From Candidatus Woesearchaeota archaeon (GTDB lineage Archaea; Nanobdellota; Nanobdellia; Woesearchaeales; UBA10216): 13,475 bases of DNA. The notes beneath the pieces were generated by a model. That model did not search any database. It saw only the letters and a program-made list of their open reading frames with translations, and was not told where the DNA came from. How positions within the stretch are numbered: position 1 is the first letter of the stretch; the number at the start of each line of letters is the position of its first letter. The DNA is taken from the NCBI GenBank assembly GCA_016180085.1, contig JACPBX010000012.1, positions 1 to 13,475 of the forward strand, given 5' to 3'. Positions 8,638 to 8,765 of this stretch are shown here, in pieces. A program made the position numbers and the translations under genes.

Positions 8638-8765
8638 GGGCCTGTAGCACAATCCGGACAGTGCGATCGGCTTCGGACAACCTTTTTCCCCGCTGCTGCG
8701 GGCAAAAAGCTTGACCAAAAAACGGACGAAACCGATTGATCTGGGTTCAAATCCCGGCGGGCTCA
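8638..8765 (+). tRNA. tRNA-Arg(UCG) with a 54-nt intron at position 37/38 (8677-8730); CCA not encoded
   Basis: Acceptor stem GGGCCTG/CGGGCTC; D stem GCAC/GTGC with A20 in the loop AATCCGGACA (an Arg identity element); anticodon stem ATCGG/CCGAT with loop CT-TCG-G|A; T arm CTGGG-TTCAAAT-CCCGG; discriminator A8765. Confidence 0.92.
8678..8723 (+). repeat. Hairpin/A-tail repeat, copy B (inside the tRNA-Arg intron)
   Basis: CAA-C-CTTTTT-C-CCCGC-TGCT-GCGGG-C-AAAAAG-C-TTG-ACCAAAAAAC. Confidence 0.75.

Follow-up and report, generated by a model that had tools for sequence, protein, structure and literature searches.

A dispersed hairpin-plus-tail module forms the body of most tRNA introns in a DPANN archaeon

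Introduction

Where does the sequence of an archaeal tRNA intron come from? A tRNA-Arg(UCG) gene raises this question with unusual directness, because almost the whole of its intron is a copy of a repeat that also occurs in the introns of unrelated tRNAs and at sites outside introns. The mechanism by which archaeal tRNA introns originate and spread was called unknown in a 2014 review (PMC4090602). According to the account given in that review, tRNA introns of the Thermoproteales have been transposed between tRNA types, by a mechanism presumed to operate on DNA, and the requirement for a bulge-helix-bulge (BHB) motif limits where copies persist (Fujishima et al. 2010, Mol Biol Evol 27:2233, via PMC4090602). 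A preprint assigns 28% of Thermoproteales introns to families that cross tRNA types, and gives no arrival route for the introns of Asgard archaea (10.64898/2026.10.13.758758).

The gene lies in a window of 13,475 bp, by which we mean the whole stretch of DNA analysed here. The window is a complete contig (C37) from the genome of a groundwater archaeon (G000), which is 1.0 Mb in size, consists of 45 contigs and is 83% complete. We describe the host gene and its intron, the family of repeats to which the intron belongs, and the behaviour of this family at orthologous sites in related genomes, and we then weigh the possible explanations.

Results

A tRNA-Arg(UCG) gene interrupted at the canonical position

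The tRNA-Arg(UCG) gene is located at window positions 8638-8765 (+). Its exons alone form the cloverleaf expected of the host of an archaeal BHB intron, with a score of 47.2 bits against the Rfam tRNA model RF00005. The anticodon stem, read by hand, is formed by 8666-8670 and 8732-8736, which places loop positions 32-37 at 8671-8676 and position 38 at 8731 and yields the anticodon UCG. The RF00005 match and the hand-read stem confirm the 54-nt intron at 8677-8730 that a sequence-only reading of the window had proposed (Table 1). RF00005 gave the only matches in Rfam (two other matches were far below their gathering scores), and the repeat module within the intron did not itself match any Rfam covariance model. 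ARAGORN detects no tRNA in the window in its default mode. In intron mode it finds the tRNA-Arg gene under the label SeC(tca), and many other tRNAs of G000 also receive wrong labels; anticodons were corrected by hand from stem positions.

The TATA-like box of the gene is situated approximately 32 nt ahead of tRNA position 1, a spacing that predicts a short leader, and the same box is found at the same distance in the orthologous loci of eight genomes. The RF00005 score, the near-invariant exons and the conserved synteny among same-genus orthologues indicate that the host is a functional tRNA gene. ECF S-component-like membrane proteins are encoded on either side of the tRNA-Arg gene, including one at 8004-8573 (+). 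Other neighbours in the window are a prolyl-tRNA synthetase (5736-7241, -) and an archaeal helicase (Helicase_dom4_arc, Hel308-like; 10293-11906, -). Among named organisms, the prolyl-tRNA synthetase has its nearest relatives in DPANN archaea of the Nanoarchaeia/Woesearchaeota type.

Table 1. Coordinates of the tRNA genes, introns and module copies in the window.
Feature	Positions	Strand	Description
Free copy, Arg-intron subfamily	316-379	-	Hairpin 379-333 plus duplicated tail; between a stop codon (305) and the next promoter
TATA-like box of the tRNA-Arg gene	8599-8606	+	TTTAAATA; read from the sequence; last base 32 nt upstream of tRNA position 1
5' exon of tRNA-Arg(UCG), positions 1-37	8638-8676	+	RF00005; identical in all same-genus orthologues found
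Intron of tRNA-Arg(UCG)	8677-8730	+	Canonical 37/38, 54 nt; removal leaves a 7-nt anticodon loop with anticodon UCG
Module, 48 nt	8677-8724	+	Bulged hairpin 8678-8713, A-rich tail ACCAAAAAAC 8714-8723 and G8724
Host-specific adaptor	8725-8730	+	8725-8728 pair with loop positions 32-35 (8671-8674), the central 4-bp BHB helix
3' exon of tRNA-Arg(UCG), positions 38-73	8731-8765	+	RF00005; identical or nearly so in same-genus orthologues
Composite free copy	8769-8849	+	Starts 4 nt past the tRNA-Arg 3' end; simple-type outer arms plus tail
tRNA-Ile(GAU), remainder	13380-13441	-	Exon 2 13441-13435, intron 2 13434-13416, exon 3 13415-13380
tRNA-Ile(GAU), intron 1, 3' part	13442-13475	-	Position 30/31, with module; contig break inside

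Anatomy and predicted splice structure of the intron

The intron had been described as almost entirely a repeat element, and this is the case: the module accounts for 48 of its 54 nucleotides (8677-8724). In the predicted fold, the hairpin comprises an outer stem (8678-8680/8711-8713), a T5/A5 stem (8682-8687/8704-8709) and an inner stem (8689-8693/8698-8702), and the tail is predicted to be single-stranded. The fold of the intron has an energy of -16.3 kcal/mol (z = -2.7 relative to shuffled sequences). On the T-rich strand, the T-run, the linker and the T/A stem may be able to pair as an intrastrand triplex, and the tail might be explained in this way. The subfamily represented here, which we refer to as the Arg-intron subfamily, keeps a C-C mismatch and the inner GC hairpin. 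In the module consensus the tail is followed by CG and then by a short host-specific adaptor, which gives the four nucleotides that pair with the exon.

Pairing with the exon was scored in the canonical register, in which loop positions 32-35 face intron positions -6 to -3 with a 3-nt bulge on each side. In this register the Arg central helix has three of four pairs, with a U33-C mismatch, and both bulges are 3 nt long (G36, G37 and A8677 on the 5' side; 8729-8730 and A38, at 8731, on the 3' side). The energy-minimal fold of the Arg intron favours a shifted 4-bp helix; the canonical register has its 3/4 pairs and takes its outer helix from the module hairpin. Arg orthologues retain G at i-3 and i-6. 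Among the 14 ARAGORN-predicted anticodon-loop introns of G000, the canonical register gives 4/4 pairs in eight and 3/4 in four, the Arg intron being one of the latter, and the tRNA-Ile intron at 30/31 has 4/4 pairs in the equivalent register when read by hand.

The module hairpin nearly always starts at intron position +2 in module-bearing introns (range +1 to +4). Such a fixed start, 1-4 nt past the 5' splice site, fits a module that defines or creates the junction better than it fits random landing in an old intron. The predicted build of the intron is a bulge, the module and the adaptor, in a relaxed form of the BHB motif; it is classed as relaxed because the single-stranded tail lies between the hairpin, which stands in place of helix h', and the central helix. 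As in the canonical archaeal tRNA intron (hBHBh'), the insert is at 37/38, has 3-nt bulges and a central helix between loop positions 32-35 and the intron 3' end, and occurs in a genome that encodes EndA and RtcB. It differs in having a U-C mismatch in the central helix, a self-contained hairpin instead of h', and 11 nt of single strand (the 10-nt tail plus G8724) between the hairpin and the central helix.

EndA of G000 (C40:45896-46387) is a protein of 197 aa with N-terminal and catalytic domains, corresponding to one alpha-type unit, and among proteins of solved structure its best relative is the alpha subunit of the N. equitans heterotetramer. No EndA beta subunit was recognised, and the ORF adjoining EndA has no similarity to EndA. 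An RtcB ligase is encoded at C15:48015-50810 (-), so both enzymes required for BHB splicing are present. The RtcB gene is a single open frame of 1001 aa in which the RtcB profile matches in two parts approximately 1.4 kb apart, and this split is most likely due to an intein. We infer that the Arg intron is actually spliced, as an enzyme-spliced intron of the BHB type.

A module-bearing tRNA-Ile(GAU) gene at the end of the window

Contigs C37 and C35 overlap by exactly 50 nt (window 13426-13475, C35:1-50) within a copy of the module. The assembly graph broke at the module repeat in a tRNA-Ile(GAU) intron. Joining C37 and C35 yields a tRNA-Ile(GAU) gene with two introns, the 5' exon being supplied from C35 through the overlap. 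The first intron is 45 nt long; the second, of 19 nt at 37/38, contains no module. The spliced sequence folds as a 75-nt tRNA in ARAGORN. The contig breaks within module repeats, together with the window tRNA missed by default ARAGORN and the many mislabelled tRNAs of G000, are a warning for annotation.

One module family in the introns of unrelated tRNAs

We catalogued the introns of G000 using intron-aware ARAGORN, hand-corrected anticodons and deletion scans around module copies. The identity of one multi-intron tRNA, on C36, was deduced to be Leu(CAG) from its orthologue in G004. Comparison of the catalogued introns revealed a single family in the introns of unrelated tRNAs, as the sequence-only reading had envisaged, and the same family is also free in the genome. 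The hairpin-plus-tail module, identified by its tail motif, is carried by 15 of the 18 introns. In 14 of the 18, a stretch of 30 nt or more matches the intron of another tRNA type at 80% identity or better, which happened for no intron in 20 shuffles. These similar introns occupy the canonical 37/38 position (Arg and others) as well as the non-canonical positions 30/31 (Ile) and 59/60 (Val, Met). Within G000, the closest kin of the Arg intron are the T-loop (59/60) intron of tRNA-Val(GAC), with 40/44 identical positions, and the intron of tRNA-Leu(CAG), with 40/45.

The 20-nt right arm of the hairpin (8702-8721) had been reported to recur exactly in the intron of a different tRNA (minus 13471-13452). 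It does, in tRNA-Ile(GAU), and it is also found on C6 and C41, giving four distinct loci together with the Arg intron; a further match at C35:27-46 is the same locus as the window end, owing to the 50-nt contig overlap. Exact recurrence of a 20-mer is not expected by chance in 1 Mb. A strict regular expression finds 35 copies of the module in G000, compared with 0-2 in shuffled genomes. The Arg-intron subfamily is mostly intronic in G000 (seven of nine copies).

At least five arm variants are present in the module family. In G000 and G005 combined, the outermost stem pair is G-C, C-G, T-A or A-T in 14, 21, 23 and 21 copies, respectively; this set was pre-filtered for at least 4/5 arm pairs, and its informative part is the diversity of pair types rather than the 100% pairing.

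A 5-bp direct repeat, CGGAC, had been noted on both sides of the element. It is present (8674-8678 and 8723-8727), but it is neither a general feature of the element nor an insertion footprint. It is unique to this copy, and its CG is the conserved 3' end of the module itself. We rejected it as a target-site duplication: it is lacking in the G005 orthologue and in an identical copy of the module in G008, and other introns are without a flanking repeat. No fixed-length target-site duplication was consistent across the module copies examined.

Copies outside introns

Approximately 30 module copies in G000 are non-intronic. Many of these lie 2-5 nt from the 5' end of a tRNA gene, where they are inverted with the tail pointing outward, or from its 3' end. 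The remaining copies are found in short spacers past stop codons or just upstream of starts. At least eight of the approximately 31 free copies are within 10 nt of a tRNA end, compared with a rough chance expectation of about 0.5. Free copies occur in both orientations relative to adjacent genes, and some are nested in one another. They sit in T/A-runs, so their insertion boundaries are ambiguous.

Two structural variants had been noticed in the window, near 332-379 and 8768-8849, and both proved to be real family members (379-333 on the minus strand and 8769-8849). The copy at 8769-8849 is a composite: a simple module whose A-run contains a nested double-hairpin repeat. The introns of tRNA-Gly(UCC) (C7) and tRNA-Gly(GCC) (C29) have this double hairpin at the corresponding point. 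The composite at 8769-8849 has many same-genus copies at 80-90% identity. It is kept at the site in G005 and is absent in G003, G002 and G006. Its T5 run (8774-8778), located 9 nt past the tRNA-Arg 3' end, would be an oligo-T terminator for the tRNA gene. The copy at 316-379 is present in G000 and G007 and is absent in G005 and G006, where the same flanks are intact. A second free copy (C39:2516-2547) is missing in G005, in which the site is a T-run of a 5' UTR. The filled and empty sites of these two free copies reveal exact element ends.

Four other free copies (C6:3264-3292, C23:19989-20018, C29:52044-52074 and C42:38319-38347) are between 29/29 and 30/31 identical in G005, and their flanks are only 79-93% identical. 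Several of them are inverted and located 12-35 nt upstream of a gene start, and a role in the promoter or 5' UTR is possible for these conserved copies. As regards a Shine-Dalgarno or promoter role for free copies in general, their distances to start codons and to tRNA position 1 are inconsistent.

Turnover of the module at orthologous sites

In seven same-genus genomes, as well as in G013 from another genus, the tRNA-Arg(UCG) gene is flanked by the same S-component-like genes. Every same-genus orthologue that we found (seven genomes) retains the intron, and each has a different version of the module. The 54-nt intron of G000, at 37/38, has a module of the inner-hairpin subfamily. The introns of G005, G003, G002, G006 and G009 range from approximately 44 to 82 nt, each with a different arm sequence or subfamily and with compensated stems, and the intron of G007 exceeds 200 nt, with further hairpin repeats following the module. 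In G013 the intron is approximately 90 nt long and has a similar hairpin-plus-tail design with diverged sequence. The Arg(UCG) gene of G015, from a third genus, has no intron. At the G005 locus the intron body is heavily diverged, although the flanks retain approximately 91% identity and the 80-nt element downstream has hardly changed. The G007 orthologue also contains a second intron, in the T-loop, consisting of a different double-hairpin repeat, and the G008 gene has the same T-loop break. This second intron is absent in six other same-genus genomes examined, which is a presence/absence polymorphism within the genus.

We compared the whole genome of G005, which is approximately 83% identical to G000 over 435 kb of aligned DNA. 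Intron conservation between the two genomes is bimodal. The introns of Ile (30/31; 46/46), Pro(GGG) (41/41), Leu(CAA) (39/40) and Val (approximately 95%) are conserved, and eight others have been swapped for another subfamily in G005, namely those of Ala(CGC), Ser(CGA), Leu(GAG), Glu(CUC), Glu(UUC), Arg(GCG), Arg(UCG) and a tRNA on C41. Gradual divergence would not be expected to give this pattern. The conserved tRNA-Leu(CAA) intron (40 nt; G000 C26:224-350, G005 D14:765-891) is without a module. Most module introns are much less well conserved, and the Leu(CAA) intron may have an independent function.

Modules are also shared between different tRNAs of different species. Positions 8677-8724 are identical (48/48) to the module in the tRNA-Gly(UCC) intron of G008, and the identity ends exactly at the adaptor. 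The Arg(UCG) gene of G008 itself has a simple-type module. Near-identical free copies are found 2-3 nt past the 3' ends of tRNA-Leu (G004, G008) and tRNA-Ala (G001). Between G000 and G005 we found no module intron facing an intron-less orthologue among the ARAGORN-detectable tRNAs, and none was found within the genus; the sole intron-less Arg(UCG) is that of G015, from another genus.

Distribution of the module and search for partner genes

We searched 40 relatives with a pattern broad enough to match every subfamily; backward-read controls gave 0-1 matches. G000 yielded 45 matches, nine same-genus genomes between 6 and 97 each, and 14 genomes from other genera of the same family 0-1 each. The pattern matched 12 times in G038, a member of another family, and once each in G024, G031 and G036, in every case inside a tRNA intron (D-loop or anticodon region). 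In G038, most of the copies fetched are in or beside tRNA genes, and a few have no tRNA within the fetched stretch. Two loci of G038 (L212 and L220) contain tandem units, each consisting of a tRNA 3'-end fragment up to the T-loop and a module copy, beside an intact tRNA-Glu or tRNA-Pro. These units look like the result of repeated duplication of the 3' exon at a T-loop intron site. An initial order-wide pattern gave no matches in 120 other families; it matched one subfamily only, so the result is limited to that subfamily.

An HUH transposase or a reverse transcriptase had been suggested as a co-occurring partner of the repeat, but neither turned up in G000. Searches of this genome, which is 83% complete, covered three families and gave no match to the Y1 HUH/IS200 transposase (PF01797), TnpB (PF07282) or reverse transcriptase (PF00078).

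Discussion

Our preferred explanation, which we regard as reasonably probable, is that the module is a non-autonomous mobile or gene-converting element whose copies in tRNA genes persist only at places from which EndA and RtcB can remove them by splicing. It builds on the anatomy of the intron, the copy census, the covariation of the arms, the turnover at orthologous sites, the filled and empty sites and the presence of EndA and RtcB. The insert in tRNA-Arg(UCG) would be a BHB-type, enzyme-spliced intron of a functional gene, with a body made of one palindromic hairpin and A-rich tail of approximately 45-50 nt. Copies of this cassette would be pasted into tRNA genes, against the ends of tRNA genes and into T/A-rich intergenic DNA, and movement appears to take place at the DNA level. 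A copy within a gene would persist only if its RNA can be excised. Its hairpin, starting 1-4 nt past the 5' splice site, would replace the outer helix by the 5' bulge, the short host-specific adaptor after the tail would pair with the exon to form the central 4-bp helix, and EndA and RtcB would then take out the whole insert. The intron site in tRNA-Arg would be old and its body would have been exchanged repeatedly. The sequence-only reading, in which tRNA introns are a neutral landing site for the repeat, is partly supported: the repeat does occupy introns and turns over there, but introns are not its sole site, as the free copies demonstrate.

Some observations point in another direction. 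The searches of G000 gave no match to the HUH transposase, TnpB or reverse transcriptase families, no consistent target-site duplication was seen, no module intron was found opposite an intron-less orthologue within the genus, and the central helix of the Arg intron has a mismatch. Several copies are 100% conserved in G005 despite the approximately 83% identity of the aligned DNA, namely free copies on C6, C23, C29 and C42 and the Ile and Pro introns, and conservation of this kind looks like purifying selection for function and not like junk. Selection on RNA structure would likewise account for the fixed distance to the 5' splice site and for the compensatory changes in the stem. The module could accordingly be a selected functional element rather than a selfish one, the similarity of introns reflecting common descent and selection. 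It could serve as a structural helper that brings an outer helix of its own to EndA, it could be bound by a processing or chaperone protein that works wherever the tRNA is cleaved, or it could be an oligo-T/hairpin terminator or attenuator. The hairpin keeps its place at the 5' splice site in every module-bearing intron, and free copies are flush, within 2-5 nt, with tRNA 5' ends (tail outward) and 3' ends, so that copies are found at all three kinds of tRNA processing site. T5-T6 runs, which would act as archaeal terminators, are present on both strands, and there are copies just past stop codons and tRNA 3' ends. Archaeal RNase P RNA (RF00373) had no match in G000-G009 at E <= 0.001, whereas four archaeal controls all matched, and its apparent absence from these 10 genomes of the genus makes an unusual form of tRNA end-processing conceivable.

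A selected function is nevertheless difficult to reconcile with the behaviour of the module across genomes. Ile intron 2 and the Leu(CAA) intron are conserved without having a module, so splicing does not depend on it. At orthologous sites, introns have been exchanged between subfamilies rather than kept, and free copies are polymorphic between species, including one insertion in a 5' UTR. The strict family has 0-1 members in 14 sister-genus genomes that have the tRNAs, at least one of them with the same intron. A T5 run within a tRNA gene is a transcription liability with no obvious benefit. On balance we consider a selected element unlikely.

An explanation that we regard as improbable is that the introns came first and spread through RNA, with excised linear or circular introns being reverse-spliced, or reverse-transcribed and re-integrated, to seed both introns and free copies. 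The 48/48 unit common to Arg (G000) and Gly (G008) is indeed an intron body minus the host-specific adaptor, the Arg-intron subfamily is predominantly intronic in G000, and the single copies in three other families are all in tRNA introns. The shared unit is without the intron 3' end, however, and hence is not an excised intron as such, free copies are nested and face either way relative to adjacent genes, and the search of G000 found no reverse transcriptase. Finally, chance resemblance or an assembly artefact of the metagenome bin, suggested by the contig break inside a copy at the window end, where the assembler struggled with the repeat, has virtually no probability and is refuted by the cross-genome data, given the exact 20-mers at four loci, the 35-45 copies compared with 0-2 in shuffles, and the same architecture, which recurs independently in nine further assemblies from the genus, where synteny around tRNA-Arg is conserved.

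Relation to known systems and implications

A mobile or gene-converting module that is tolerated where it can be spliced out has parallels in three known systems. [quoted passage not shown] Our host, in contrast, is a DPANN archaeon of approximately 1 Mb and not a crenarchaeon. Here 14 of 18 introns are similar across tRNA types, compared with 28% there, although the clustering methods differ. The unit is a defined hairpin-plus-tail module that also has approximately 30 free copies, some of them flush with tRNA 5' or 3' ends, and our data include interspecies filled and empty sites and swaps of orthologous introns. The sequence-only reading was aware of no description of the phenomenon. Similar introns in different tRNAs are already known, from the Thermoproteales, but we found no paper linking such introns to a free dispersed repeat, and a full-text literature search found none on DPANN tRNA introns made of a dispersed repeat.

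The module also resembles MITE and REP-like elements in being short, non-coding, palindromic and dispersed, and in having subfamilies with compensated arms, insertion polymorphism and nesting. The terminal inverted repeats, dispersed copies and insertion polymorphism that define a MITE correspond here to the palindromic covarying arms, the copy census and the filled and empty sites. It differs from these elements in having no consistent target-site duplication, in the strong attraction of its copies to tRNA processing sites, and in having no detected partner gene of the transposase, RAYT or IS200/IS605 kind.

Introner elements of eukaryotic algae and fungi are non-autonomous DNA elements that create spliceosomal introns on insertion. 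They share with the module the principle of a repeat family that is tolerated in genes because host splicing removes its copies, and they also give rise to bursts of similar introns. The differences are that removal here depends on a protein endonuclease and a ligase acting on RNA structure, that the hosts are tRNA genes, and that here introns are presumed, rather than seen, to be created by insertion. It is possible, although we propose it only tentatively, that the module is an archaeal counterpart of introners, in which insertion beside a loop position makes a new enzyme-spliced intron and the end of the hairpin sets the 5' splice site. If this is true, the other end would need only a 4-nt match to the exon, the module would be the long-sought source of tRNA introns in DPANN archaea, and a lineage without detectable RNase P RNA would also have recruited the cassette to the 5' and 3' ends of its tRNAs.

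Within this genus the donor sequence is visible, since most introns have as their body one and the same module, which is also found free and at tRNA ends. This points to the module family as a concrete and testable donor for archaeal tRNA introns. The swaps visible at orthologous introns and the identical copies in different tRNAs of different species thereby open the origin of these introns to test.
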